From Candidatus Saccharimonadota bacterium (GTDB lineage: Archaea > Nanobdellota > Nanobdellia > Pacearchaeales > GW2011-AR1), in NCBI GenBank assembly GCA_026002795.1, contig BPGA01000001.1, positions 1-32,000 of the forward strand: 32,000 nucleotides of DNA. The letters run 5' to 3'. Below the pieces are notes generated by a model. It was not told where the DNA came from and did not search any database. It was given only the letters and a program-made list of their open reading frames with translations. The first letter of the stretch is position 1. Every line of letters begins with the position of its first letter. A program made the translations under genes and the position numbers. Positions 4,309-29,850 of the stretch are shown piece after piece.

Positions 4309-6059
4309 GAGGTTTTTTCTTTTATATTGATAATTTCTTGCAAAGATTTAATTTCAGATTCTGAAAGAACATCTTTGTTTTTCATTAAATTTTTAATTTG
4401 CTCATTTGAAAGATTTGAATACAAAAAGTTTTCTTTTGAAAGTTTTCTCTCAAAATTAACTCCTGGAACAGATATAGCAACTTCTTGAGTTTCTATAGCT
4501 TCGTTAACTTGCTTTCCTTCTGACTGAATTGCCTTTATCTTTCCAATTTTTTCATTTTTTTCATTTATTAGCTCTAATCCAGGAATTATTTTTCCAGATT
4601 CTATTTTAACACCAAAAATAGCAGGGTTTGAATTTCTAAAAACAAACTGATGCAAAATTTTAAGTTTTGCTATAGGAGATAAAGACAAAAGCCTTCTTTT
4701 TTCTATCTCTCTTGCTTTTTCTTTTCTAAACTCCTTAAGTTTTTCAATTACTCTATAAATCACTTCATCAGTTAATATAGTTATATTACCTTTTGTTTCT
4801 AATACATCTTGATCAATATTAACATTAAAACCTAAAATTACAGCATTAAGTTCATTTATTTTTAAATTTGCTTTTGCCATAACAACATCAGATTTATTTA
4901 TATTTCCTATTCCTGCCTTTAAAATTTTAAAATTTTCTTGATGAAGAATTGAGATTAATGCTTCTAAACTTCCTAAAGAATCTGCTTTAACAATTATTCC
5001 TTCTTTATCTGTTTTTATAGCTTCTGAGATCTGTTTTTTAAATAGGTTTTTTATTTCTTCTTTATTGTTGTTGTATTTTAAAAAAGGCATTCCTGGTAGG
5101 ATCTCTTCTTTTTCAACCAATTGCATTCTTATTCCAGTTGCAGCATTAACTTTTTCTCTTGGAATAAATTTAAATGATAAAGGAAGAATTTCTTCTAAAA
5201 CACGTATCTTAGTTATTATTGGTTCTCCGTAAATGTTAGATATTGCAATCTCATCTTCTTTAGAGAGAGTTCCGTCGTAAATTATTGCTTCAACATAGTT
5301 TGTTTGCTCTTTTTTTATTTCAAGAATAACTCCTTTTGCATCTTTTCCTAATTTTAATCTCTCTTTTAAATATTTTTGACTTAACCCACATAATATCAAT
5401 AAAAGTTCTTGTATGCCTTCTCCTGTTTTTGCAGAACAAGGAACAAGAGAAATTTTTTTTGTGAAATCAGTTACATTATAAAATAAATCTGAATCAAAAC
5501 CATGGGCTTGCAAAGAACCCACAATCGTAAGGTATTTTTCATTAAAATCATTTAAAGTATTTTTTGGTTGAGAAGAAATTCTGTCTTTTAAAGGAATTTC
5601 ATCTTTTCCTTTTTTCCAACCATGAATTTTATCTATTTTATTTAAGGCAACGACAAAAGGAACTTTATTTGTTTTTAAAATTTGTATTGTTTCAGAAGTT
5701 TGTGGTTTTATTCCTTCATTTATATCTATAACAAGAATTGCTATATCAGCAAGAGATCCGCCTCTTTTCCTAAGATTTGTAAATGCTGCATGTCCTGGAG
5801 TATCTATAAATAAAAACCCAGGTATTTCTAGATTAATATTATTTTTCTCAATTAGAGGACATGCTTTTTTTAGTTGATTAGAAGGATAAACAGTAAAAGA
5901 AATTTTTTGAGTTATACCTCCTGCTTCTTTTTCATGAATAGAGCTGCCTCTAAAATTATCAAGTAAAGAGGTTTTTCCGTGATCAACATGTCCGCATACA
6001 GTAACTATCGGCTGTCTTATCTTTAATTTTTCTTTTTCAGTCATTTTTTCATTTTTCAT
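4305..6059 (-). CDS. infB: Translation initiation factor aIF5B (IF-2 family GTPase)
   Basis: 584 aa. Motifs RQPIVTVCGHVDHGKTSLLD, DTPGHAAF and NKID. The four-domain length is typical of archaeal aIF5B. Confidence 0.9.
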   Translation of the reverse strand: MKNEKMTEKEKLKIRQPIVTVCGHVDHGKTSLLDNFRGSSIHEKEAGGITQKISFTVYPSNQLKKACPLIEKNNINLEIPGFLFIDTPGHAAFTNLRKRGGSLADIAILVIDINEGIKPQTSETIQILKTNKVPFVVALNKIDKIHGWKKGKDEIPLKDRISSQPKNTLNDFNEKYLTIVGSLQAHGFDSDLFYNVTDFTKKISLVPCSAKTGEGIQELLLILCGLSQKYLKERLKLGKDAKGVILEIKKEQTNYVEAIIYDGTLSKEDEIAISNIYGEPIITKIRVLEEILPLSFKFIPREKVNAATGIRMQLVEKEEILPGMPFLKYNNNKEEIKNLFKKQISEAIKTDKEGIIVKADSLGSLEALISILHQENFKILKAGIGNINKSDVVMAKANLKINELNAVILGFNVNIDQDVLETKGNITILTDEVIYRVIEKLKEFRKEKAREIEKRRLLSLSPIAKLKILHQFVFRNSNPAIFGVKIESGKIIPGLELINEKNEKIGKIKAIQSEGKQVNEAIETQEVAISVPGVNFERKLSKENFLYSNLSNEQIKNLMKNKDVLSESEIKSLQEIINIKEKTS

Positions 6060-7046: not shown

Positions 7047-7127
7047 GCCGACGTGCCAGAGTGGTAATGGAACGGTCTCGAAAACCGTGCCCTTTTGGGC
7101 TCCTAGGTTCGAATCCTAGCGTCGGCG
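7047..7127 (+). tRNA. tRNA-Ser (anticodon CGA), class II with a long variable arm; no encoded CCA
   Basis: Hand-folded. Acceptor GCCGACG/CGTCGGC. Anticodon stem ACGGT/ACCGT with loop CTCGAAA, giving anticodon CGA. Variable arm GCCC-TTTT-GGGC. T arm CTAGG-TTCGAAT-CCTAG. Discriminator G. Followed by TTTTT at 7128-7132. Confidence 0.9.
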
Positions 7128-7156
7128 TTTTTCATTTCAATAAAATATTTTTAAAA

Positions 7157-7777
7157 ATGAAAGAAAGAAAAATTAGACTGACAAAAAAAGAAAGGGATAT
7201 AATAAAAAAATTAAATACACCAAGGAAAATTCAAGATTATATAAACAACAACATAAAATATGATTTTGATAATGATTCTATTGTTAGATCTTTTAGAATG
7301 GTTCTTAAAGATAGAAGAGCAAATTGTTTAGACGGAGCTATTTTTTCAGCCTCTGTACTTTATTTTTATGGTAAAAAACCTTTGATTGTATGTATGGAAG
7401 CTAGAGATATGGATCATAATATTGCCGTTTATAAAGAAAATGGAAAATGGGGGAGCATTGCACAATCTAGAGATCAAAACTTAAAAGAAAGAGAACCTAG
7501 ATTTAATTCAATAAAAGATTTGGTTATGTCCTACTATCCTTATTATTGGGATTGCTTTTCAGATCCAGAAGATATAACAAATTTAACTTTAAGAGGTTAT
7601 TCTTTAGTTAATTTAGAAAGATTCATGCCAGAATTTATTGTTTCAGAAGAAAGCCTTAATCATATAGAAGATTTTTTATGGCAAACTAGATACAGATTTT
7701 TATTTCCAAGACATGATATGAAAAAATTTTACAGAATTGACAAAAAAACAGAAAAATTGTTTTTTGAGGAACATTAA
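7157..7777 (+). CDS. Hypothetical protein, possibly a transglutaminase-like/papain-fold Cys-His-Asp enzyme
   Basis: The track ORF starts at 7061, but its first 32 codons run through the tRNA, so the start was moved to the in-frame ATG at 7157 (206 aa). RRANCLDGAIFSASVLYF...DHNIAVYKENGKWGSIAQSRD resembles a transglutaminase core (C...H...D) by pattern only. Confidence 0.45.
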   Translation: MKERKIRLTKKERDIIKKLNTPRKIQDYINNNIKYDFDNDSIVRSFRMVLKDRRANCLDGAIFSASVLYFYGKKPLIVCMEARDMDHNIAVYKENGKWGSIAQSRDQNLKEREPRFNSIKDLVMSYYPYYWDCFSDPEDITNLTLRGYSLVNLERFMPEFIVSEESLNHIEDFLWQTRYRFLFPRHDMKKFYRIDKKTEKLFFEEH

Positions 7778-9603: not shown

Positions 9604-9714
9604 CAGAATATAAAAAATAAAAATAATTTACTGAATTATACTAAATTTAACAAAATAAAAAGTTAAGTATAATATTAAAAAACTTAAAAAGGTTAAATAA
9701 ATTTGTGTTTAATC

Positions 9715-11118
9715 ATGCAAACAACGAGTTTAAAAATTACTAGAGAGATTTATGATAAACCAGCAGCTGAAAAATTAGCTTTTAAGCCAAAACCAGGGCT
9801 TTCTGAAGAGCTTATAAAATATATCTCTAGAGATAAAGGAGAGCCTGAATGGATGTTAAAGAAAAGGCTTGAAGCATTTAAACTTTTTCAAGAGATGCCA
9901 ATGCCAAATTTTGGTCCTGATCTTTCTGAACTTGATTTTAACAAAATATACTTTTATCTTAAACCAAAAGCAAAGAAAAATTCAAAAAACTGGAAAGAGC
10001 TACCAAAAGAAATAAGGGAAACTTATGAAAAACTTGGAATTCCTAAAGCAGAAAGAGAGGCTCTTGCAGGTGTTGGAGCACAATATGAAAGTGAAGTTGT
10101 TTATCATAAGCTTAAAAAAGAATGGGAAAAACAAGGTGTTATTTTTTTAGATTGTGACGAAGCTCTTAAGCTTTATCCTGAATTATTCAAAAAATACTTT
10201 ATGAGTACATGTATTCAACCTAGTCTTCATAAATTTGCAGCACTTCACGCAGCTGTTTGGTCTGGAGGAACATTTATTTATGTTCCCAAAAATGTAAAAG
10301 TTAAGCAACCATTGCAAGCATACTTTAGAATGAATGCAAAAAGAGCTGGTCAGTTTGAACACACTTTGATTATTGCAGATGAAGGAAGCGAAGTACATTA
10401 TATTGAAGGATGTTCAGCTCCAGTTTATGATGAAAATGCTTTGCATGCAGGATGTGTTGAGATACATGTTTTAAAAGGAGCAAAAGTAAGATATAGTAGT
10501 ATTGAAAATTGGAGTAAAAATACTTATAATTTAAACACCAAACGCGCAATTGTTCATGAGAATGCAGTTATGGATTGGGTTAATGGAAATACTGGAAGTA
10601 AAGTTACAATGCTTTATCCTTGCAGTGTTTTAATTGGCGAAGGTGCAAAAACAAGTTATATTGGAATTGCTTATGCTTCTAGAGGACAAAACCAAGATAC
10701 AGGATGCAAAGTTTATCATCTCGCTCCAAACACAACATCACATATTGTAAGCAAAAGCATTTCAATGAATGGAGGAATTACAAACTATAGAGGTTTAGTT
10801 AAAATAAAAAGAGGTTGTAAAGGAGCTAAATCCAGTGTAAATTGTGAGGGACTCATGCTTGATAATAAAAGTAAAGCTACAACTTTTCCAAGCATGGAAG
10901 TAGAAGAGAACGATGTTGCTGTTTCGCATGAAGCTGCAGTTGGTAAAGTAGGAGAAGAACAAATTTTCTATTTAATGTCTCGCGGATTTTCTGAACAAGA
11001 AGCAACAAAAATTATTGTTTCAGGTTTTATAGAACCTTTAATAAAAGAGCTACCGCTTGAGTATGCAGTTGAGTTGAATAGGCTTCTTGAAATGGAAATT
11101 GAAAATTCTGTTGTTTAG
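9715..11118 (+). CDS. sufB: Fe-S cluster assembly protein SufB
   Basis: The track ORF begins at TTG 9703; the ATG at 9715 (MQTTSLK...) is the more likely start (467 aa). SufB-like along its whole length (FGPDLSELDF, HTLIIADEGSEVHYIEGCSAP, VSHEAAVGKVGEEQIFYLMSRG). Confidence 0.92.
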   Translation: MQTTSLKITREIYDKPAAEKLAFKPKPGLSEELIKYISRDKGEPEWMLKKRLEAFKLFQEMPMPNFGPDLSELDFNKIYFYLKPKAKKNSKNWKELPKEIRETYEKLGIPKAEREALAGVGAQYESEVVYHKLKKEWEKQGVIFLDCDEALKLYPELFKKYFMSTCIQPSLHKFAALHAAVWSGGTFIYVPKNVKVKQPLQAYFRMNAKRAGQFEHTLIIADEGSEVHYIEGCSAPVYDENALHAGCVEIHVLKGAKVRYSSIENWSKNTYNLNTKRAIVHENAVMDWVNGNTGSKVTMLYPCSVLIGEGAKTSYIGIAYASRGQNQDTGCKVYHLAPNTTSHIVSKSISMNGGITNYRGLVKIKRGCKGAKSSVNCEGLMLDNKSKATTFPSMEVEENDVAVSHEAAVGKVGEEQIFYLMSRGFSEQEATKIIVSGFIEPLIKELPLEYAVELNRLLEMEIENSVV

Positions 11119-11194: not shown

Positions 11195-12421
11195 ATGAAA
11201 TTAAGTAACAAAACAGTTCACACATTAAAGAAAGATTTTCCTATTTTTAAGAATAATCCAGGGCTAATCTACTTGGATAATGCCGCAACAAGTCAGAAAC
11301 CAAAACAAGTAATAGATGTTTTAAAGAAATTTTATGAAAAAGAGTATGCAAATGTTCATCGCGGTGTGTATAGACTTTCTTCAAATGCAACAGAACTTTA
11401 TCTTAAATCAAAGGAAATTATTGCAGAATTTATTGGCGCAAAACCTGAGGAAATAATTTACACTAGAAATACAACTGAAAGTTTAAACCTACTTTCTTAC
11501 ACATTACCTTCTATAATTAATGCCACTAATAAAAAAAGAGACGAAATTGTTTTGACAGAAATGGAGCATCATTCTAATTTAATACCTTGGCAGCAATTGG
11601 CTAAAAGAGGGGGTTGGAAATTAAAATTCATTAAACTTAAAGGTTATGAGCTTGACATGGAAGATTTTAAAAAGAAAGTAAGCAAAAAAACAGCTGTTGT
11701 AGCTTTATGCCATGTTTCAAATTCATTAGGAACTATAAATCCTGTTCAGGAGATTATAAAAATTGCAAAGGAAAAAGGAGCTTTGACTGTTATTGATGCT
11801 GCACAAAGTGTTCCTCATATGAAAGTTGATGTTTTAAAGGTTGGTGCTGATTTTCTGGCTTTTTCAGGTCATAAAATGATGGCGCCAACGGGAATCGGTG
11901 TTTTGTATGGAAAAAAACAATTACTTGAAAAAATGCAACCATTTATGTTTGGTGGAGAAATGATAAAAAAAGTTACTTTAAATAGTGCAACCTGGGCAGA
12001 TTTACCAGCAAAGTTTGAAGCAGGCACTCCGCATATTGCAGGAGCAATTGGTTTAGGAGAAGCAATTAATTACATTAAAAAAATTGGAATTGAAAATATT
12101 GAAGAGTGGGAGAAAAAATTGCTTGATTATACACTAGAAAAAATTAAAGATATCAAAGGAATTAAAATTTACAATAGTGGAAAAAATAGTTCTGGAATTT
12201 TGTCTTTTAATCTTGAAGGAATACACCCTCATGATGTTGCTAGTTTACTTGATGAGCAAGGAATAGCAATCCGCGCAGGCCACCATTGCAATATGCCTTT
12301 AATGAAAATTTTAGGAGTTCCAGGCACGTGTAGGATAAGTTTTTATCTTTACAACACTTTTGAAGATATTGATGCTTTGATTTCAACTTTAAAAAAAATA
12401 AAAGATAAATTTAAAAAATAA
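11195..12421 (+). CDS. sufS: Cysteine desulfurase SufS (group II)
   Basis: 408 aa. PLP lysine in FSGHKMMAPTGIG; catalytic-Cys loop RAGHHCNMPLM; N-terminal YLDNAATSQKP. Confidence 0.92.
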   Translation: MKLSNKTVHTLKKDFPIFKNNPGLIYLDNAATSQKPKQVIDVLKKFYEKEYANVHRGVYRLSSNATELYLKSKEIIAEFIGAKPEEIIYTRNTTESLNLLSYTLPSIINATNKKRDEIVLTEMEHHSNLIPWQQLAKRGGWKLKFIKLKGYELDMEDFKKKVSKKTAVVALCHVSNSLGTINPVQEIIKIAKEKGALTVIDAAQSVPHMKVDVLKVGADFLAFSGHKMMAPTGIGVLYGKKQLLEKMQPFMFGGEMIKKVTLNSATWADLPAKFEAGTPHIAGAIGLGEAINYIKKIGIENIEEWEKKLLDYTLEKIKDIKGIKIYNSGKNSSGILSFNLEGIHPHDVASLLDEQGIAIRAGHHCNMPLMKILGVPGTCRISFYLYNTFEDIDALISTLKKIKDKFKK

Positions 12422-12432
12422 ATTAAAATGGA
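12417..12432 (+). repeat. Direct repeat copy A (AATAAATTAAAATGGA): sufS stop, spacer and start of the protease ORF
   Basis: Perfect 16-nt identity with 13053-13068. Both copies contain TAA + ATTAAA + ATGGA in the same register. Confidence 0.9.
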
Positions 12433-13057
12433 TAATAGGGTTTGGTTAATTTTAAGACCGCATTACTCACCTTCAGGTGCTCTAGAAAAAGTAGGAATTT
12501 GTGGTAGTGGGTTCTTCATTAATAAAGGCACCTTTGTGACTTCTTATCACATTTTAAATGAATCTTCTTTTATTCCAAATGCTTTTTATTTCAATAAAAA
12601 TATTTTTTTGGTTAATCCAAAAGGGAAAAAAATTGAAATTAATGTTGAGGATGTTTATAAGTTCATCCCAGAATTAGATATAACAATAATAAAAATAGAT
12701 GGTGGAGAGAGATTTTTAATCGAAGAAGATTATAATGAAGGAGACTATGTAAAAAATTTAGGATATCCAGAAAGGTATTCTAAAGAAATATTAGAACCTA
12801 AGGAAATTAGAATAAAAAACCAATTTGAGCAAGAAGGTAAAATTCTAAAAATTTACAATAATTATTCAATGAATGCTAATGACGTAAAAATTTTCAATAA
12901 AGAAGTAATTATCCTTGATTATACTTCTGAATTAGGTTTTAGTGGCGGTCCTTTACTAAAAAATAAAAAAGTTATTGGAGTCATGTCTCACATTTACCCA
13001 CAAAATAAAAATGCTGTTGCAATCTCAATTAAAGAAATAAAAAAACACATTCAATAA
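12428..13057 (+). CDS. Trypsin-like (S1/chymotrypsin-fold) serine peptidase, no signal peptide
   Basis: 209 aa. Ordered His/Asp/Ser triad contexts: GSGFFINKGTFVTSYHIL, LDITIIKID, LGFSGGPLL. It sits between sufS and sufU. Confidence 0.65.
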   Translation: MDNRVWLILRPHYSPSGALEKVGICGSGFFINKGTFVTSYHILNESSFIPNAFYFNKNIFLVNPKGKKIEINVEDVYKFIPELDITIIKIDGGERFLIEEDYNEGDYVKNLGYPERYSKEILEPKEIRIKNQFEQEGKILKIYNNYSMNANDVKIFNKEVIILDYTSELGFSGGPLLKNKKVIGVMSHIYPQNKNAVAISIKEIKKHIQ

Positions 13058-13068
13058 ATTAAAATGGA
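13053..13068 (+). repeat. Direct repeat copy B (AATAAATTAAAATGGA): protease stop, spacer and sufU start
   Basis: Identical to 12417-12432; the offset is 636 bp. Confidence 0.9.
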
Positions 13069-13444
13069 AAAAGGAATTCCTTCAGACATGTACAAAGAAC
13101 ATATACTTGAACTCTATAGAAGTCCAAGTAATTTTGGGATTCTTGAGAAGTCAACGCATGAGGCAACAGAGTACAATTCTGTTTGTGGTGATGAAATTAC
13201 AATTCAAATGATTATTGAAAAAGGAATCATCAAAGATGCAAAGTTTTCCGGCAGTGGATGTGTGATTTCAATTGTCTCTTCATCTTTACTCACCGATAAA
13301 ATTAAAGGAAAAAAAATAGAAGAGATAAAAAATCTTACAAAAAAAGATATTTTAAAATTATTAAAGATAAAAATTACACCAGCAAGAATTAAATGTGCGC
13401 TTTTGCCTTTAGAGGCAGCTAAAAAAGCATTGAAAAATGCTTGA
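13064..13444 (+). CDS. sufU: SufU/IscU-type Fe-S scaffold / sulfur acceptor
   Basis: 126 aa. Motifs LYRSPSNFGIL, VCGDEITIQM, DAKFSGSGCVIS and PARIKCALLPLEA align by eye with Bacillus SufU, though it is shorter. Confidence 0.85.
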   Translation: MEKGIPSDMYKEHILELYRSPSNFGILEKSTHEATEYNSVCGDEITIQMIIEKGIIKDAKFSGSGCVISIVSSSLLTDKIKGKKIEEIKNLTKKDILKLLKIKITPARIKCALLPLEAAKKALKNA

Positions 13445-13454
13445 AATAAAAAAT
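13433..13454 (+). repeat. Direct repeat copy A (AAAAATGCTTGAAATAAAAAAT): sufU 3' end/stop plus a vestigial sufC start
   Basis: Perfect 22-nt identity with 13755-13776. It contains the sufU stop (TGA) and an ATGCTTGAAATAAAAAAT (MLEIKN) that now opens only a 12-codon ORF. Confidence 0.95.
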
Positions 13455-13459
13455 AGAAT

Positions 13460-13756
13460 ATGTCTAAAAAAATAAAAAAAACAATAGATGAAGGAAAAGT
13501 TTATGATTTTTTTACAAATAGAAAAATTGGAAAGGCCCTCTATATTGGGAGAATTTATCATCCAGGATTTTTTGGTGCATATCACACAATAATTCGTAGA
13601 GGTTTAGATGGAAAAATATGTTGTTTTTGTTTTGATAAGTATGTATTAAGAAATAATGAAAGAGTTTACATTCCAAAAAACTCTTTTTTTGAAGTTAAAT
13701 TTACAGAAAGAGAGGAAAGACATTTTAATTGGTTACTTGAAAAACAAGGAATTTAA
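13460..13756 (+). CDS. Hypothetical 98-aa protein inserted between sufU and sufC
   Basis: The ORF fills almost exactly the 300 bp between the 22-bp repeats. No confident domain. It contains KVY-x12-YIG and CCFC. Confidence 0.5.
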   Translation: MSKKIKKTIDEGKVYDFFTNRKIGKALYIGRIYHPGFFGAYHTIIRRGLDGKICCFCFDKYVLRNNERVYIPKNSFFEVKFTEREERHFNWLLEKQGI

Positions 13757-13776
13757 AAATGCTTGAAATAAAAAAT
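13755..13776 (+). repeat. Direct repeat copy B: functional sufC start region
   Basis: Identical 22-mer; here ATGCTTGAAATAAAAAAT is the real sufC start (MLEIKNLYVE...). Confidence 0.95.
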
Positions 13777-14493
13777 CTTTATGTTGAAAGAGAGGGAAAA
13801 GAGATATTAAAAGGAGTTAATTTAAAACTAAAGACTGGAAAAATTTATGCTCTTATGGGTCCAAATGGATCAGGAAAATCAACACTTGCCCATGTTATTA
13901 TAGGTGATCCTAAATATAAAGTTGTCTCAGGAAAAATTTTATTTAAAAAGAAAAATATTTTAAATCTTAAACCAGACGAGAGAGCTAAACTAGGAATCTT
14001 TTTATCTTTTCAGAATCCTGTAGCAATTTCGGGAGTCACAATTTCAAATTTTTTGAGGCAGGCTTACAATAACTTTAATAAGAAAAAAATATCTTTTTTA
14101 GAATTTAAAAGATTGATTGAAAAAAAAGCTAAAGAACTAGAGATTGATACTGATTTTTTATCACGTTACATTAACGAAGGCTTTTCAGGAGGAGAGAAAA
14201 AAAAGACAGAAATTCTTCAACTTCTTGTATTAAATCCAAAAATTGCTATACTTGATGAAACAGATTCAGGTCTTGACATTGATGCTTTAAAAATTGTTGC
14301 AAAAGGAATAAATAAATTTATGTCAAATGATAAAATTATTTTAATAATAACACACTATAAGAGAATTCTTAATTATATAAAACCAGATAAAATCTTTGTG
14401 ATGTTAAATGGTAAGATTGTTGCAGAAGGAAAAAAAGAGGTAATTGAAAAACTTGAAAAAAAAGGATATTCATGGATTAAAAATAAATATTAA
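13759..14493 (+). CDS. sufC: Fe-S cluster assembly ATPase SufC
   Basis: 244 aa. Walker A GPNGSGKST, signature FSGGEKKK, Walker B ILDETDSGLD, H-loop ITHY. Confidence 0.92.
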   Translation: MLEIKNLYVEREGKEILKGVNLKLKTGKIYALMGPNGSGKSTLAHVIIGDPKYKVVSGKILFKKKNILNLKPDERAKLGIFLSFQNPVAISGVTISNFLRQAYNNFNKKKISFLEFKRLIEKKAKELEIDTDFLSRYINEGFSGGEKKKTEILQLLVLNPKIAILDETDSGLDIDALKIVAKGINKFMSNDKIILIITHYKRILNYIKPDKIFVMLNGKIVAEGKKEVIEKLEKKGYSWIKNKY

Positions 14494-16815: not shown

Positions 16816-16977
16816 TTAACAACCTCCTACCATACCAGCATATGCCTGAGCAGCTTTTCCAGCTTCTGTTGAGAGCGTTGCGCTACCTGTTCCAGAACCC
16901 TTAAAAAATATTGTATAAATAACAGCAATTAGCAAAATTCCAATAATAATCCAAAGTATTATTTTTTCTTTTTCCAT
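16816..16977 (-). CDS. Unannotated 53-aa membrane-anchored peptide ending in GMVGGC
   Basis: My translation is MEKEKIILWIIIGILLIAVIYTIFFKGSGTGSATLSTEAGKAAQAYAGMVGGC*. It fits exactly into the operon: 18 nt after the upstream stop, and its own stop lies 1 nt before the next ATG (TAAAATG). Confidence 0.4.
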   Translation of the reverse strand: MEKEKIILWIIIGILLIAVIYTIFFKGSGTGSATLSTEAGKAAQAYAGMVGGC

Positions 16978-16995: not shown

Positions 16996-17646
16996 TTAAC
17001 AAGCACCAACCATACCTCCTTTCACTCCTTGTTCAATCCCTCTATATTTATTTGTTGTAAGATTTATGTAATCAACATTAATTCCATAATTTTCCATTAC
17101 CTGTGCTTTGTTTTCAAGTATGCCTGGAAAGAAAAGAACTTTCCATTTTCCTACTTCTGTAAGAATTTCCTCATCACTCATCTCTGGATGATATTTTATC
17201 AGATATTTTGTAAGTCCACGCATTGCATAACTATGAGCGCAACCACATGCAGGCTGTCCGTTGCTGAAAATTACACTTCTAGCACCACAACAATACTCAC
17301 AAGCAATTCCGTTTTCCATATAATAAAGAATATTAATATACCTTTCAAGTTCAGGTTCAGAAAGAGTTTCAACTCTATCAATATTCCCAAGTAATCTTAT
17401 TGTTGAATCTGCTTTTTTTGGGTCAGTAGGAGAAACATCATCATAAGTTATTCCTAACTCTTCTCCATAGACTTTAGGAACACCTGTTGGAATGATTGAT
17501 GATGCAGGTACTGTTCTAATTTCAGAACCAACACTTTTTGATCCTACTTTTCCTGAGTAGCTATAAATTAAAATTCCAGCAAGTACTATAACAATAATAG
17601 CCTGAATATAAAACTCCCAATCTACTTTCTTATTTTTTAATTTCAT
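16996..17646 (-). CDS. Membrane-anchored Cys-rich ectoprotein, diverged PCYCGC-like domain, ending in GMVGAC
   Basis: 216 aa with an N-terminal TM helix. IACEYCCGARSVIFSNGQPACGCAHSYAMRGLTKYLIKYHPEMSDEEILTEVGKW aligns by eye with the 16455-16814 and 22840-23487 products. Confidence 0.6.
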   Translation of the reverse strand: MKLKNKKVDWEFYIQAIIVIVLAGILIYSYSGKVGSKSVGSEIRTVPASSIIPTGVPKVYGEELGITYDDVSPTDPKKADSTIRLLGNIDRVETLSEPELERYINILYYMENGIACEYCCGARSVIFSNGQPACGCAHSYAMRGLTKYLIKYHPEMSDEEILTEVGKWKVLFFPGILENKAQVMENYGINVDYINLTTNKYRGIEQGVKGGMVGAC

Positions 17647-25846: not shown

Positions 25847-25989
25847 CTTTCGGTTTTATTATCACTCTACAGTTACTACTCTTAATCTTTATTTTGATTG
25901 TTATTTTGGTTGTTGTGTTTTTTATGGCTTATTTCGCTTTTTAAAGAAATAATGTCTTCTACACCCAGAGTTTTTTAGATTTTTAATAG

Positions 25990-26005
25990 GTTAGAATTTT
26001 ATTTT
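25990..26005 (-). repeat. Direct repeat copy (+ strand GTTAGAATTTTATTTT) just past the stop of the 136-aa ORF
   Basis: Perfect 16-mer also present at 26505-26520, inside the last codons of trxB. The 8 adjacent bases match at 6 of 8 (TTTAATAG versus TTTAACAT). Confidence 0.7.
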
Positions 26006-26014
26006 ATTGAAGTG

Positions 26015-26425
26015 TTAAGAGAAAATCTTTTTTAATTCTTCTTTAAGATCATCAATAGAAGATTTGTTTGTTTTTATTGATTGAATTAGATTTCCATAAG
26101 CATCTCTTGAAAAAGGATAATATCCAAAAACCCTGTCTCTTGACTTTAGTGTTATTTTAGTGTAGTTTAATGCACTATCTATTTCTATTCTTAAAGGAAC
26201 CCCTTTGTTTGGATGAACATATTCGAAGACGACCTTAACAATTTTTCCTCTTTCTGATGCTTCTAAATCAAAAACAAATAAATGTCTGTATCTTCCAACA
26301 ACGTCCAAACGAGTTGATGCCATTTTCTCTAAATCAGATAAAGAATTTATTTTTTCTCTATCAATTAAAACATAAGTAAATTTAGAAATTTCTTTAATTT
26401 CATCTAATGAAATCTGTCTGTCCAT
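26015..26425 (-). CDS. Hypothetical 136-aa protein
   Basis: Clean ORF with its own TATA-like box (TATTTAAATTTT at 26446-26457, 21 nt upstream). No domain recognised. Confidence 0.55.
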   Translation of the reverse strand: MDRQISLDEIKEISKFTYVLIDREKINSLSDLEKMASTRLDVVGRYRHLFVFDLEASERGKIVKVVFEYVHPNKGVPLRIEIDSALNYTKITLKSRDRVFGYYPFSRDAYGNLIQSIKTNKSSIDDLKEELKKIFS

Positions 26426-26497
26426 AAAAAAAGAATTTCTTTAAATATTTAAATTTTATAGAAAAAGAATTTATAGAAAATCAAAATAACTTTTTGT

Positions 26498-27490
26498 TTA
26501 ACATGTTAGAATTTTATTTTTTGTGATGTACTGATAAGCAGAGTAAGCAGCAGTACAACCATCTGCCACGCCCGTAATAAGCTGTTTGAATGGTTTATCT
26601 GTTACATCTCCAGCAGCATAAACTCCAGGAATATTTGTTTCAGAAGTTGCATGATTAATCTCTATTTCTCCTTTTTCATTAAGTTTAACACCTAAATTTT
26701 TTGCGAGATCAGAGATAGGAATATGACCTATTGCAACAAAAACACCCTGAACCTTCAACTCTTTTTTTCCTTTATATGGTTTATCTAAAACAACACTCTC
26801 AACAGAATTCTTACCTTTTATTTCAATAACATTTGTATTGTTTATAATTTCTATTTTTTTATTTTTTTTAATGCGTTCCATGTTTATTGGCTCTGGGTGA
26901 ATTTGTTCTCCTCGATAGATAATGTAAACTTTTTTTGTATACTCTGAAAGAAGTAATGCATCTTTTGCAGCGCTATCACTTCCTCCTATAACTGCAACAA
27001 CTTTTCCTTTAAATAAAGGTCCATCACATAAAGCGCAATAACTAACCCCTTTATTTTCAAATTCTCGAGAACCTTTTACAGAATCAGGAAGTTTTCTCCA
27101 TTTTGTTCCAGTAGCAAACAAAATTGTTTTTCCAACATAATTTCTTTTATTCTCGGTTGAAACTAAAAAACAATTTCCGTTCTTTTTTATTTCGCTAACT
27201 TTTTCATTTTTTATTGTAACTTCTTTATAAGATTTAGCATGCTCTTCAAGTTTTTTCGCTAGCTCTACTCCAGACAATCTTATGAATCCAGGATAGTTTT
27301 CAACAATATGTGTTGTTGTGATCACCCCACCAATTGGAAGCTCTGTCCCATAAGTGCTTCCTAAAACAAGTGTTTTTAATCCAAGTCTTGCAGCATACAT
27401 TGCAGCAGCTAATGCTGTTCCGCCAGCACCTATTATTATAAAATCATACTGGTTTATTTTTTGTTTTAAATCTTTTATTTTCTTTTTCAT
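26498..27490 (-). CDS. trxB: Thioredoxin reductase (low-Mr FAD/NAD(P)H type)
   Basis: 330 aa. FAD site DFIIIGAGGTALAAAMYAAR, redox-active CALCDG, NADPH site VIGGSDSAAKDAL, and C-terminal GVYAAGDV. Confidence 0.9.
   Translation of the reverse strand: MKKKIKDLKQKINQYDFIIIGAGGTALAAAMYAARLGLKTLVLGSTYGTELPIGGVITTTHIVENYPGFIRLSGVELAKKLEEHAKSYKEVTIKNEKVSEIKKNGNCFLVSTENKRNYVGKTILFATGTKWRKLPDSVKGSREFENKGVSYCALCDGPLFKGKVVAVIGGSDSAAKDALLLSEYTKKVYIIYRGEQIHPEPINMERIKKNKKIEIINNTNVIEIKGKNSVESVVLDKPYKGKKELKVQGVFVAIGHIPISDLAKNLGVKLNEKGEIEINHATSETNIPGVYAAGDVTDKPFKQLITGVADGCTAAYSAYQYITKNKILTC
26505..26520 (-). repeat. Direct repeat copy within the trxB 3' end (codons for ...KNKIL)
   Basis: Identical 16-mer to 25990-26005; the offset is 515 bp. 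Confidence 0.7.
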
Positions 27491-27532: not shown

Positions 27533-28681
27533 TTAATTTATTCTTTTTCCGTTTTCATAAACAAACATTTTTCTTTTTGCTAACTCATTGAAAAAAAGTT
27601 TTTGAGGAACAACTGCCTCTGGAGCATAAACTCCTTTATCTTTTATTTGACCTTTTTTTATCATTTCTGAAATTAAAGCAATTGTTCTCCCCGTATCAAT
27701 ATTGCTTCCTGCATCTTCCCATCCTTTTAATGTTCTTACAAGACAATTCATTTTTACTAATTTATCTTTTCCATTTTTTGTTCCATAAATCTCAGCCCAA
27801 ATATTTTCAACCTCACGATAATTTTTTGGCTGTTTTATTTTTTTAAGAACTTTGTTTGTAAAATCGACAATTTTAATTTTATTTCCCGAAACTTCTATTT
27901 CTTCTTCAGAGTTAAAACCAAGATCAATAAGTGTTTGTATAACTTTAAATGAATGTTCTGGAAAACCAGCCATATAATGTATATTCTTAAGCCCTTTATT
28001 TCTAAAGTATTTAGAAAAAGTATAAACCTCTGAATGAACAATACAATAAACTTTTTGTTTTCCTATCTCTTTAAAATTAACCTCTCCAACACATCTTGCT
28101 CTTTTTTCTCTTACAAATTTTCCGTTATGAAAAGTCACCGGGTCTTCTGTAAATTCGTGAAAAATGCTAGGCATAGAATAAGGAATAACAAATTTTTTTA
28201 TGTTAGAATTCCATGCAAAACCCAATTTTATTGTTTCTACACTATCTAATTTATCAACAGCATAAGCTGTCATGACATTTACAATTCCTGGAGTTGAACC
28301 ACAACCCGTTAAACACAAAATTTCTTTTTCCTGAAATTTTTTATGAAATTTAAATTGCTGTTCAGTTATTTTTTGCAAGCCCCCAAGATCTGTAACTGGT
28401 TTTTTTGTTTCTAAACACGCTTTCATTATCTGAACATTAAAAACTAATTCAGCACAATTGATAACAACATCAGGATTTGATTTCTTTATTGCAGAAACAA
28501 TTTCTTTATAGTTTGTTAAATCAACTTTCATAAAAGACGCGTTTTTATTTTTTAGAATATTAGAAATTGAACTTTTATCTCTTCCTACTAAAAGTATCTT
28601 ATAATTATTTTCAAGTAAATCTCTTGCACAAATACTTCCTTGAAAACCAGTTCCTCCAAAAATTATAAAATCATATTTCAT
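27533..28681 (-). CDS. Saccharopine dehydrogenase family NAD(P)-binding protein, paralog 2
   Basis: 382 aa. N-terminal Rossmann motif FIIFGGTGFQGS; mid motif GCGSTPGIVNV; C-terminal GVYAPEAVV. The length and layout fit the saccharopine/carboxy(nor)spermidine dehydrogenase family. Confidence 0.8.
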   Translation of the reverse strand: MKYDFIIFGGTGFQGSICARDLLENNYKILLVGRDKSSISNILKNKNASFMKVDLTNYKEIVSAIKKSNPDVVINCAELVFNVQIMKACLETKKPVTDLGGLQKITEQQFKFHKKFQEKEILCLTGCGSTPGIVNVMTAYAVDKLDSVETIKLGFAWNSNIKKFVIPYSMPSIFHEFTEDPVTFHNGKFVREKRARCVGEVNFKEIGKQKVYCIVHSEVYTFSKYFRNKGLKNIHYMAGFPEHSFKVIQTLIDLGFNSEEEIEVSGNKIKIVDFTNKVLKKIKQPKNYREVENIWAEIYGTKNGKDKLVKMNCLVRTLKGWEDAGSNIDTGRTIALISEMIKKGQIKDKGVYAPEAVVPQKLFFNELAKRKMFVYENGKRIN

Positions 28682-28698: not shown

Positions 28699-29850
28699 TT
28701 AGTTAACTCTCTTTTTATTTTTTAAAATGATTATTCCTCTTTTTTTCAACTCACTAAAAAATTCTTTTGGATTTATAATGCTTTCTGGAGCATAGACCCC
28801 TGATTTTTTTAAAAGTCCTTTATTTTCTGAAATCATCTGTGTGATGATCGAACAAGGAACTCCTGTGTTATAGCTTCCGGCAGAAATGTTTCTTGTTGTT
28901 TTAGTTATAGCATCTAAAAATAAAGATCCTTTATTAAAAATTACTCTTAAAATTTCTTTGTCTTTTATTTTTGTTTTCTGGTTAACTATGAATTTTTCCA
29001 TTAGATTTGAGGTCACATCGATAATTTTTAATTTTTGTCCACTTAAATTTAAATTTTCTTTTGAAGTAAAACCATTTTCAATCAAAATCTTAATTTTTTC
29101 TATGAAATCATCATCAAAAGTTACTCTAAATTCAATATCTTTTATTCCTTTATCTTTTAAAAAAGAAGGAAGAGTTGCTAGTTCTGAATGTAAAGTTAAA
29201 AAAGCTCTTTTTTTTCCAAATCCATCAATGTAATATATTTTTTCTCCAGACATCGGCTTTACAAATCTAATTTTTCCTTTTTTTAAAACCGCTGGTTTAA
29301 GAGTAAATTCATCTACAAGAGTTTTAAAACTGTAAGGAAGAACAAATTTTTGTTCGTATTTTGTTTCGTCTTTATCTGCAAAAAAAATTTCAATTTCATT
29401 TATTTTTTTAAGTAATTTTGAGCCATAAGCAACTAAAACATTAGTTATTCCTGGAGAAGATCCACAACCTAGAATTGCTAGTTTTTTAATTTTTTTAAAA
29501 TAACGATGAAGTTTAAGTTGTTTTTTTGTTAAATGATACAAACCTCCTAAGTCAACATAATTTGTTTTTGCTTTTAAGCAAGCTTTCATAATCTCAAAAT
29601 TAAAATAATACTGAACACAATTAACAACAACATCAGAACCCTTTATTAAAGAAACAAGTTCTTTTTTATTTTGAATGTTGGTTTTTTTTGCTTTAACTCT
29701 TGGAGAATTAAAAGAATTTGCATATTCTTCTGCTTTTTCTAGGTTTCTTCCTACCACAAAAATTTCACAATTTTTATTGGTTTTGAATAAATCATAAACC
29801 ACGATTTTTCCAATTATACCATAACCACCCAAAACAACAATTCTTTTCAT
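28699..29850 (-). CDS. Saccharopine dehydrogenase family NAD(P)-binding protein, paralog 1
   Basis: 383 aa with VVLGGYGIIGK, GCGSSPGITNV and GVYAPESII. Colinear with the neighbouring paralog, so this is a tandem duplication. Confidence 0.8.
   Translation of the reverse strand: MKRIVVLGGYGIIGKIVVYDLFKTNKNCEIFVVGRNLEKAEEYANSFNSPRVKAKKTNIQNKKELVSLIKGSDVVVNCVQYYFNFEIMKACLKAKTNYVDLGGLYHLTKKQLKLHRYFKKIKKLAILGCGSSPGITNVLVAYGSKLLKKINEIEIFFADKDETKYEQKFVLPYSFKTLVDEFTLKPAVLKKGKIRFVKPMSGEKIYYIDGFGKKRAFLTLHSELATLPSFLKDKGIKDIEFRVTFDDDFIEKIKILIENGFTSKENLNLSGQKLKIIDVTSNLMEKFIVNQKTKIKDKEILRVIFNKGSLFLDAITKTTRNISAGSYNTGVPCSIITQMISENKGLLKKSGVYAPESIINPKEFFSELKKRGIIILKNKKRVN

Follow-up and report, generated by a model that had tools for sequence, protein, structure and literature searches.

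Introduction

The genomes of DPANN archaea are very small and densely packed, and gene gain in these organisms is poorly known. In prokaryotes at large, integration hot spots are core-gene intervals in which different accessory genes gather across lineages. Here, we describe the gain and loss of single genes at stop/start junctions of the suf operon for iron-sulfur (Fe-S) assembly in Candidatus Pacearchaeota, a DPANN archaeon, and its relatives. Unlike the intervals of classical hot spots, these junctions lie within one translationally coupled operon, usually hold one short gene and contain almost no non-coding DNA. The starting point was a stretch of 32,000 nucleotides (nt) of contig BPGA01000001.1, termed the window in the following. 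It carries an open reading frame (ORF) for 98 amino acids (aa), ORF98, which lies between sufU and sufC and is flanked by a perfect 22-nt direct repeat. From the sequence of the window alone, this arrangement had been taken for a newly inserted single-gene cassette of a novel kind (the original prediction). The comparison with related loci presented below points instead to a resident gene of a new protein family, and the repeat may have arisen by copying of one junction onto the other.

Several described systems share some features with this locus. In T4-type phages, single and often orphan ORFs with short direct repeats, the PeSLs, on either side are gained, lost or swapped in hyperplastic regions, and recombination between these repeats has been proposed to yield circles that act as vectors (PMC2839356, PMC4122927). 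Such mini-circles match the small circle considered as a vehicle in the original prediction. Unlike the PeSLs, which represent one promoter-plus-terminator motif present genome-wide, each repeat reported here is, within the window, specific for its junction, and the host is cellular. A second parallel is provided by homology-facilitated illegitimate recombination and the displacement arrays of type VI secretion system effector-immunity genes in Vibrio cholerae, where new genes enter a fixed slot beside a conserved anchor, relic gene ends are left behind and an integrase is not needed (PMC5361080). In contrast to these arrays, the setting here is a housekeeping Fe-S operon with abutting or overlapping genes, the anchor would comprise ~20 nt and single genes rather than modules are concerned. 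Transposons and casposons likewise leave direct repeats of the target on either side of the insert; the present loci differ by the lack of a transposase or casposase and of terminal inverted repeats, and by repeat lengths of 16, 22 and 24 nt. Finally, ectopic gene conversion and template switching produce a perfect tract with decayed flanks, allow a derived copy to be told from a donor copy and do not involve mobility genes, all of which is also seen here. What sets the present case apart is the shortness of the tracts (16-22 nt) and of the flanking similarity, and the location at two junctions of one operon that are 320-640 nt apart. To our knowledge, ectopic conversion of this kind has not been demonstrated in DPANN archaea. 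A search of a collection of papers yielded nothing that joins "DPANN" with "suf operon" and nothing relevant on overlapping genes together with junction duplication. What is new is the setting, a housekeeping operon of DPANN archaea with promoter-less single ORFs lodged at its stop/start junctions.

A perfect repeat flanks the gene between sufU and sufC

The suf genes of the window are arranged in the order sufB-sufS-protease-sufU-X-sufC on the plus strand, with ORF209 as the protease gene and ORF98 as X. The genes and the repeats at their borders are:

9703-11118, plus strand: sufB (Pfam SUFBD_core, E = 4.8e-84)
11195-12421, plus strand: sufS, class-V aminotransferase/cysteine desulfurase (Pfam Aminotran_5, E = 1.3e-151)
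12417-12432, plus strand: upstream copy of a 16-nt repeat, consisting of the sufS stop, a 6-nt spacer and the ORF209 start
12428-13057, plus strand: ORF209 in the sufS/sufU slot, trypsin-like serine protease (Pfam Trypsin_2 and Trypsin)
13053-13068, plus strand: downstream copy of the 16-nt repeat, consisting of the ORF209 stop, a 6-nt spacer and the sufU start
13064-13444, plus strand: sufU, 126 aa, ending in ALKNA before the stop (Pfam NifU_N, E = 2.9e-27)
13433-13454, plus strand: left (upstream) copy of the 22-nt repeat, with the last sufU codons and stop (AAA AAT GCT TGA) and an overlapping ATG at 13437
13437-13475, plus strand: mini-ORF MLEIKNRICLKK plus stop, 12 codons, out of frame with ORF98
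13460-13756, plus strand: ORF98 (X family), with matches to syntenic ORFs of relatives
13755-13776, plus strand: right (downstream) copy of the 22-nt repeat, the native sufC translation-start region with the first six codons (MLEIKN)
13759-14493, plus strand: sufC, ABC ATPase, 244 aa (Pfam ABC_tran; 81% identical to SufC of the nearest relative, L094)

The repeat AAAAATGCTTGAAATAAAAAAT occurs at exactly two sites in the window, 13433-13454 and 13755-13776, even when up to three mismatches are tolerated. The match grows to 25 of 26 nt, and 8 of the next 12 bases upstream are also identical. The sufU stop codon TGA (13442-13444) and the ATG at 13437, which opens the mini-ORF, overlap inside ATGCTTGA. 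ORF98 starts 5 nt after the left repeat and 15 nt after the sufU stop, and 2 nt lie between its stop codon and the start of sufC. The geometry is as originally described, with the repeat spanning a sufU stop that overlaps a sufC-type start. In silico deletion of one repeat copy together with the insert recreates an overlapping sufU/sufC junction with an overlap of 8 nt. A search for empty junctions in relatives had been proposed along with the prediction; L068 and L069 have this very 8-nt overlapping junction, with SufU ending in KNA.

An origin of the repeat by chance in AT-rich DNA or by an assembly artefact is so improbable as to be practically negligible. The window has a G+C content of ~29%, and exact 16-mers within 3 kb are expected at 0.49 per window (four were observed, two of them off junctions), which would favour coincidence. 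Against it, two matches to the 22-mer were found in none of 100 dinucleotide shuffles of the window, and 200 windows simulated under an order-3 Markov null contained no exact repeat of at least 22 nt within 3 kb, the longest measuring 21 nt. Both copies also lie exactly on gene boundaries. Furthermore, the sequence produced by a second assembler, the Logan assembly of run DRR290133 (assumed to originate from the same sample), is identical across 8.6 kb and carries both repeat copies unchanged. By reasoning, a mis-join would not be expected either, as the repeat is shorter than assembly k-mers. The duplication is thus real, and the initial assessment of a chance match as very unlikely stands.

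ORF98 belongs to a protein family confined to the sufU/sufC slot

A word-indexed search and an exhaustive phmmer search with ORF98 matched nothing except ORF98 itself, and comparison with Pfam and NCBIfam gave nothing above threshold. Homology was detected through gene order, pairwise comparison and profile search. Loci fetched via SufU revealed an ORF for 89-127 aa in the sufU/sufC slot of many relatives, and ORF98 matched several of these syntenic ORFs in BLASTP comparisons (E = 2e-6 for L004, 2e-4 for L006, 4e-5 for L084 and 9e-5 for L094). A profile built from three X sequences found seven further proteins. The syntenic matches and the profile search rule out that ORF98 is an orphan. The family comprises 27 distinct sequences from 22 loci, and at every member locus examined (22 distinct relatives carrying X) the gene sits between sufU and sufC. 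ORF98 has all seven conserved residues (G12, Y15, Y28, F58, Y61, E85 and L93) and also retains the hydrophobic and aromatic core shared by the 27 members bar one conservative leucine to valine change. Four loci (L030, L042, L053, L072) contain tandem pairs of strongly diverged X genes in one sufU/sufC gap. No second copy of ORF98 turned up in the search for further copies, and its homologs occupy only the sufU/sufC slot. The notion of a lone inserted cassette is therefore not borne out by the family's confinement to this slot in 22 distinct relatives.

The AlphaFold model of ORF98 has a mean pLDDT of 83.6 and shows seven strands and a C-terminal helix. No fold match in the PDB was obtained with Foldseek (best E = 0.17, TM ~0.3). 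On the basis of sequence comparison and structure prediction, we classify ORF98 as a divergent member of a fast-evolving family of small, predicted beta-rich proteins, family X, of Nanoarchaeia suf operons. The family is uncharacterised and is new here. X could not be recognized as a Suf, Isc or Nif component by homology or fold: it belongs to no Pfam or NCBIfam family, and hhalign comparisons with SufC, SufU and SufS gave probabilities of about 3% or less. A chimeric origin of X from 5' parts of sufC and 3' parts of sufU by tandem duplication was considered and rejected, because the hhalign probabilities for SufC (3.2%) and SufU (0.1%) were no better than that of the SufS control. The same applies to a sulfur relay protein with an invariant cysteine, a residue that was invariant in the first nine sequences only and not in the 27. 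Its constant place in the gene order suggests that X may have a role in Fe-S assembly.

Sequence identity among X proteins is nearly uncoupled from that among the corresponding SufC proteins. It ranges from 16 to 69% for SufC identities of 75-80% and from 33 to 90% for SufC identities of 85-90%, which is explained either by extreme rate variation or by frequent replacement of X alleles between lineages. The X proteins of the window and L094 share 26% identity, and the family range at that SufC distance is 22-57%. Divergence of X therefore has no power as a test of foreign origin, since the family is fast-evolving and scattered and 26% is not an outlier.

The left repeat copy occupies the position of the probable former X start

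The nearest relative found, L094 (SufC 81%, SufU 75% identical), has the gene order sufS-protease-sufU-X-sufC and lacks the junction repeats. Its sufU ends in KENA before the stop and overlaps the start of X within ATGCCTGA, at the same position as ATGCTTGA in the window. The sufU/X overlap of L094, GAAAATGCCTGA, is the positional ortholog of the left repeat copy, and the left-junction sequence reads GAAAATGCCTGAAGAAATTGAC in L094 as compared with the left copy in the window. X of L094 begins with MPEEIDFM, and 12 of its first 18 nt are identical to the sufC start of L094 itself. The X start of the window aligns with Met8 of the L094 protein, displaced by +2 nt. The ATG at 13437 aligns with the X start of L094. 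What had been described as a vestigial sufC start thus does match the sufC start in sequence, but its position is that of the old X start. The mini-ORF at 13437-13475 is probably the former 5' end of X, overwritten by sufC-start sequence.

The right repeat copy is the native sufC start. Its 21-22 nt are also found at the start of sufC in L024, L039, L042, L043, L051, L053, L062, L063, L074 and L081, among which L039, L043, L051 and L053 were compared with the window and have SufC proteins that are only 65-70% identical. The right copy is thus under strong constraint, and the left copy likewise shares 21-22 nt with the sufC start of many other lineages. Because the right copy equals the sufC start conserved throughout the clade, we infer that the left copy is derived and that the right copy acted as donor. 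The nucleotide identity of the right copy in many lineages also means that the 22/22 match says less about recency than it appears to. No recent donor DNA was detected among the relatives, which are 63-77% identical at the nucleotide level over gene-length operon alignments; identities above 77% were confined to matches of 30-90 nt, the conserved sufC-start segment among them.

Partial similarity of the two junctions is seen in further X-bearing loci. In L043, L026 and L039, 10-12 nt are common to both junctions. L023 carries a perfect 19-mer around X (24 of 26 nt in the extended match), the right copy of which includes a relic of the sufU end. In L016, the nearest relative of L023 (SufC 83%), no more than a partial relic, KKAL, is left. 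The N-termini of several X proteins (MEIK in L026, MQEIEEN in L053, MPEEI in L094) resemble the MLEIK of SufC. An old junction duplication would account for X genes that begin like sufC in several lineages and for those in which a remnant of the sufU 3' end closes the gene. As a separate observation, the 3' end of sufU (GCN TTG AAA TAA AA) resembles the 5' end of sufC (ATGC TTG AAA TAA AA) in a shifted frame. In L063 (~4335-4355), the end of sufU and the start of sufC are the same nucleotides, with a 13-nt overlap and SufU ending in KKCLK before the stop. Empty TAA-A-ATG junctions of sufU and sufC therefore resemble a 14-nt near-tandem repeat, which might be the scar of a past insertion and loss.

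These comparisons bear on the idea that the duplication dates back to the original insertion of X and that purifying selection has since held both copies identical; the AT-rich sufC start region could, for instance, be an optimal re-initiation site that also couples translation of X to that of sufU. The conservation of the sufC start at the nucleotide level including synonymous sites, with SufC proteins as little as 65-70% identical, and the 8/12 match upstream of the core, as if the core had been protected while the flank decayed, are what this explanation predicts. It is nevertheless improbable: X of the window does not begin in the left copy, the ATG of which leads into a dead-end ORF of 12 codons, and L094, L084 and most other relatives carrying X do not have this sequence at their left junction.

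A second repeat flanks the adjacent protease gene

The sufS/sufU slot is filled by ORF209, which is bracketed by the 16-nt repeat AATAAATTAAAATGGA at 12417-12432 and 13053-13068 (16 of 16 nt identical). When the start of each gene was compared with its own end region, scores at the level of this 16-mer had P = 0.002 per gene under a within-window null, and the two suf-operon ORFs ranked as the top two among 40 genes for start/end flank similarity. Exact 16-mers alone are only moderately unusual. The sufS/protease junction reads TAA-A-ATG in all four relatives compared (L084, L086, L093, L094), and TAA-ATTAAA-ATG in the window only, which equals the window's own downstream protease/sufU junction. 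We conclude from this comparison that the upstream copy (12417-12432) is likely to be the derived one.

Homologs of ORF209 are 58-73% identical. In L084, L093, L094 and L086/L087, they reside in the same sufS/sufU slot, and L085 does not differ from L084 in sequence at either junction. With the window included, the gene is part of the suf operon in six lineages. The homologs of L088/L089, L090, L091 and L092 lie in unrelated surroundings, those of L091 and L092 next to hsdR, GmrSD and methylase genes. The best PADLOC match of ORF209 (1e-15) falls on the defence-associated RT-Protease_XI, in its protease domain. In 100 bootstraps, the suf-located proteases of this type were never monophyletic. 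The uniform divergence of sufS, protease and sufU was rejected as proof of vertical descent. It carries no information on this point: with homologs in unrelated contexts, too, the protease gene shares ~69% nucleotide identity, a sign of saturation.

A third locus lies outside of the suf operon, downstream of a thioredoxin-reductase-like gene, and consists of a repeat with 22 of 24 nt identical (25982-26005 and 26497-26520) that brackets an ORF for 136 aa, ORF136. Pfam, NCBIfam and PADLOC scans of ORF136 gave no match. The two copies are:

26497-26520, minus strand: upstream copy, the true 3' end (NKILTC before the stop) of the thioredoxin-reductase-like gene at 26498-27490 (minus strand)
25982-26005, minus strand: downstream copy, a non-coding relic of that 3' end, reading NKILTY before the stop and located 9 nt past the stop of ORF136 (26015-26425, minus strand)

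Both additional loci had been noticed originally (12417-13068 and, more weakly, 25990-26520) as having the same layout, and in both the repeats are real.

Three further observations were made in the window. A 53-aa membrane ORF (16816-16977, minus strand) and the 216-aa ORF upstream of it (16996-17646, minus strand) both end in GMVG[G/A]C before the stop, with 19 of 22 nt identical; this may reflect one more duplicated gene end left as a relic, or else a C-terminal motif common to both proteins, and taken alone the score does not reach significance (P = 0.035 per gene). The genes at 27533-28681 and 28699-29850 (both minus strand) are tandem paralogs for 382 and 383 aa, with repeat families D1/D2 at a spacing of 1163 nt. 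A tRNA-Ser(CGA) is located at 7047-7127, and the listed ORF 7061-7777 begins inside it, so its true start probably lies further downstream.

All three suf junctions are hot spots of gene gain and loss

Core suf genes were located in the 77 related loci in which at least part of the operon is present, and counts refer to the distinct loci among these. The sufB/sufS, sufS/sufU and sufU/sufC gaps are bimodal in length: they measure either -20 to +7 nt (plus three of 49-76 nt) or ~170-2400 nt. Occupied gaps contain one to few ORFs of many unrelated families (HAD-like, Ser_hydrolase, AlaX-like, DUF59-like and families of unknown function), which are patchy on the core tree. The Ser_hydrolase family is encountered in two different slots, sufB/sufS in the L004/L008 group and sufS/sufU in L035/L041. 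Occupancy differs between lineages that are still 90-94% identical in sufU (L076/L077, L057/L074, L018/L025, L028/L036). In the cleanest of these pairs, L076 is empty and L077 has a gap of 628 nt, and only AAAATGAA is duplicated (8 nt, including the overlapping ATGA). In these archaea, all three suf junctions are hot spots for gain and loss of unrelated single genes, a finding that is new.

A flanking junction duplication is present in four of the 75 distinct occupied junctions:

window, sufU/sufC: 22 of 22 nt
L023, sufU/sufC: 19 of 19 nt
window, sufS/sufU: 16 of 16 nt
L074, sufB/sufS: 21 of 25 nt

In the case of L074, the insert ends in EASII and SufB in EDSII, each before the stop; a weaker version is seen in L062 (EASRI). 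The other 71 occupied junctions share only the TAAAATG stop-start motif. For the suggestion of a recurrent mechanism that drops single ORFs into junctions while duplicating them, the turnover of the slots and these four duplications count in favour, and the lack of a longer repeat at most occupied junctions counts against.

The existence of a new self-mobile single-gene element, served by a dedicated nuclease or recombinase that is encoded elsewhere and makes long staggered cuts at operon junctions, is very improbable. Three flanked single genes within 32 kb and long, variable repeats (16, 22 and 24 nt) are the observations that favour it. As originally stated, neither an integrase nor a transposase is present: Pfam scans of the inserted ORFs and their neighbours found none (Trypsin_2 in ORF209 being the only match in an insert), and NCBIfam and PADLOC contributed nothing relevant. 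Domains of a recombinase, transposase or nuclease are absent from the inserts and from the genes next to them, and homing endonuclease domains of the LAGLIDADG, GIY-YIG, HNH or similar type were not found in the inserted ORFs by Pfam and NCBIfam. The insert ends lack terminal inverted repeats; a search of 12380-13820 gave only imperfect A/T-rich pairs, none of them at 13455/13754 or 12433/13052. An integron cassette does not fit, because the 5 nt before and 2 nt after ORF98 leave no room for attC and no integrase is encoded by the Pfam-scanned ORFs. Nor was a genome-wide motif of the PeSL type apparent, as TAAATTAAAATG is present exactly only at its own two junctions and the 22-mer only twice; the flanks are junction-specific and not repeated elsewhere in the window. 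Duplication length is not fixed either: the window has 22, 16 and 24 nt, L023 has 19-26 nt, L074 has ~25 nt and L077 has 8 nt. A conserved end sequence or an associated enzyme is absent across the loci examined here. In addition, the inserts are mutually unrelated, and both suf inserts occur in the same slots of distant, repeat-free relatives.

Several further features of the related operons were recorded. In L005, L018, L025, L027-L029, L036 and L086/L087, a second sufU paralog follows sufU with an overlap of 4 nt (23 nt in L086/L087), and no sufC is present within the ~0.4-5 kb of downstream DNA examined. By eye, the slot genes at L077 4404-5374, L079/L080 2281-2649 and L056 4467-5060 appear to include a HEPN-like gene with a partner, a DUF559-type ORF and a NYN-like ORF; the HEPN-like gene is preceded by a DNA-binding-like or nucleotidyltransferase-like ORF, and the DUF559-type gene looks Vsr-like. 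SufB is split by ~1.2 kb between the residues equivalent to 298 and 299 of the window protein in L006 (2030-3236), L020/L021 (~187-1394) and L051 (588-1795). The interruption in these four loci is probably an intein; SufB of the window is uninterrupted. In L056 (upstream of 862), SufB is matched only from residue 299 on, and an interruption at this place is a guess.

Discussion

How did the perfect repeats come about? In principle, ORF98 and ORF209 could have arrived recently, or they could be old residents whose borders were changed later. Sequence and gene order of the relatives indicate that both are probably old residents of their slots and that the perfect repeats are specific to the lineage of the window. 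We therefore favour the following scenario, to which we assign a rough probability of 0.42 and which is tentative: in a short-tract ectopic gene conversion or a template switch, the sequence of the downstream junction would have replaced that of the upstream one, on top of an older, partly decayed junction duplication. X would have entered an overlapping sufU/sufC junction long ago, in the ancestor of a large clade. This original insertion would have duplicated the junction, and both flanking genes would have stayed intact. Indeed, any insertion without junction duplication would destroy a neighbour because the genes abut or overlap. In the lineage of the window, the two partly alike junction copies would later have been made identical again when ~22 nt of the conserved sufC start were copied onto the sufU/X junction, either by ectopic gene conversion or by a replication template switch. 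Copying would have left a valid sufU stop (after KNA) and put the first codons of the old X gene out of frame, such that X would now begin at the ATG located 23 nt downstream. Copying in the same downstream-to-upstream direction would have homogenised the protease-flanking junctions over 16 nt.

Two findings agree with this proposal. At the X locus, the presumed donor is the conserved sufC start and the acceptor departs from what L094 and L084 have at their sufU/X junctions; at the protease locus, the sufS/protease spacer departs from that of four relatives and equals the window's own downstream junction. The pair L023/L016, with a perfect 19-mer in one and a partial relic in its nearest relative, constitutes a second, independent case of the pattern. 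Several points weigh against it. Gene conversion on the basis of only ~5-14 nt of flanking similarity is unusual and is not known from these organisms, and copying would have been needed at least twice within 1.4 kb. The third locus is not naturally explained, as a non-coding relic lies beyond the ORF and prior homology is not evident there. The closest relative stands at 81% SufC identity, which does not bracket the time of the event, and the phylogenies are rough neighbour-joining trees. Finally, the left copy is exactly the intact empty overlapping sufU/sufC junction of L068 and L069, and this is what a different course of events would predict.

That course is an updated version of the original prediction, in which X, and separately the protease gene, was lost and then recently regained by insertion into the emptied 8-nt overlapping junction with the 22-nt duplication formed de novo. 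The source could have been a relative or a sister chromosome, and the routes envisaged are Campbell-type integration of a small circle at the 22-nt sufC start, a crossover out of register where the end of sufU resembles the start of sufC, and insertion at a staggered break with fill-in. We regard re-insertion as unlikely, though several findings favour it. The left copy contains what looks like an entire and functional empty junction, as also present in L047 and L063, the repeat is perfect, and the 22-mer, being identical in many lineages, could be a shared crossover site. Slots are gained and lost between lineages with 90-94% identical sufU genes, accessory families are patchy with Ser_hydrolase in two slots, and the protease has homologs in unrelated contexts with suf-located ones never forming one group in the bootstraps. 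The relic gene ends at the third locus, in L023 and in L074 fit insertion with target duplication as well. On the other hand, re-insertion requires loss and regain of two adjacent genes that the nearest relatives hold in the same slots without repeats, and our searches gave no donor-like DNA, empty-site allele or second copy. Furthermore, the ATG in the left copy corresponds to the start of X itself in L094, 71 of 75 occupied junctions share nothing beyond the TAAAATG motif, and the cleanest before/after pair, L076/L077, duplicates 8 nt only. Conversion and re-insertion are weighed here with a nearest SufC at 81% identity, DNA comparisons saturated at 63-77% and an X family too erratic to be used as a clock. 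A newly dropped cassette of a novel mobile kind is unlikely, since X and the protease occupy the same slots in relatives and L094 is free of repeats.

A more far-reaching idea is that the suf stop/start junctions are attachment-like sites at which the host's own machinery excises and re-integrates single promoter-less ORFs such as X, proteases and hydrolases within and between lineages, with the two perfect repeats of the window as fresh scars. Recombination would take place at short, ultra-conserved translation-start segments, the junction would be duplicated each time and both neighbours would survive. We consider this clearly unlikely.

Irrespective of the mechanism, the plasticity of the suf junctions and the X family are real. 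An essential Fe-S assembly operon carries different single extra genes at three junctions in almost every lineage, in some cases with a duplicated junction. This offers a testable picture of how new genes may come to lie between neighbours that overlap or abut and yet stay intact: insertion duplicates the junction, or else insertions that fail to do so are lost. Family X, widespread, very fast-evolving and with a confidently predicted fold unlike solved structures, is worth experiments, as is the presence of a protease related to those of defence systems inside a suf operon. Should the repeats not be active, they represent a tidy example of short-tract sequence homogenisation. If, instead, they are active recombination sites, they would constitute a new integrase-free route of gene exchange, and attachment-like junctions would amount to an integrase-free, operon-embedded analogue of integron and PeSL shuffling in the smallest cellular genomes.

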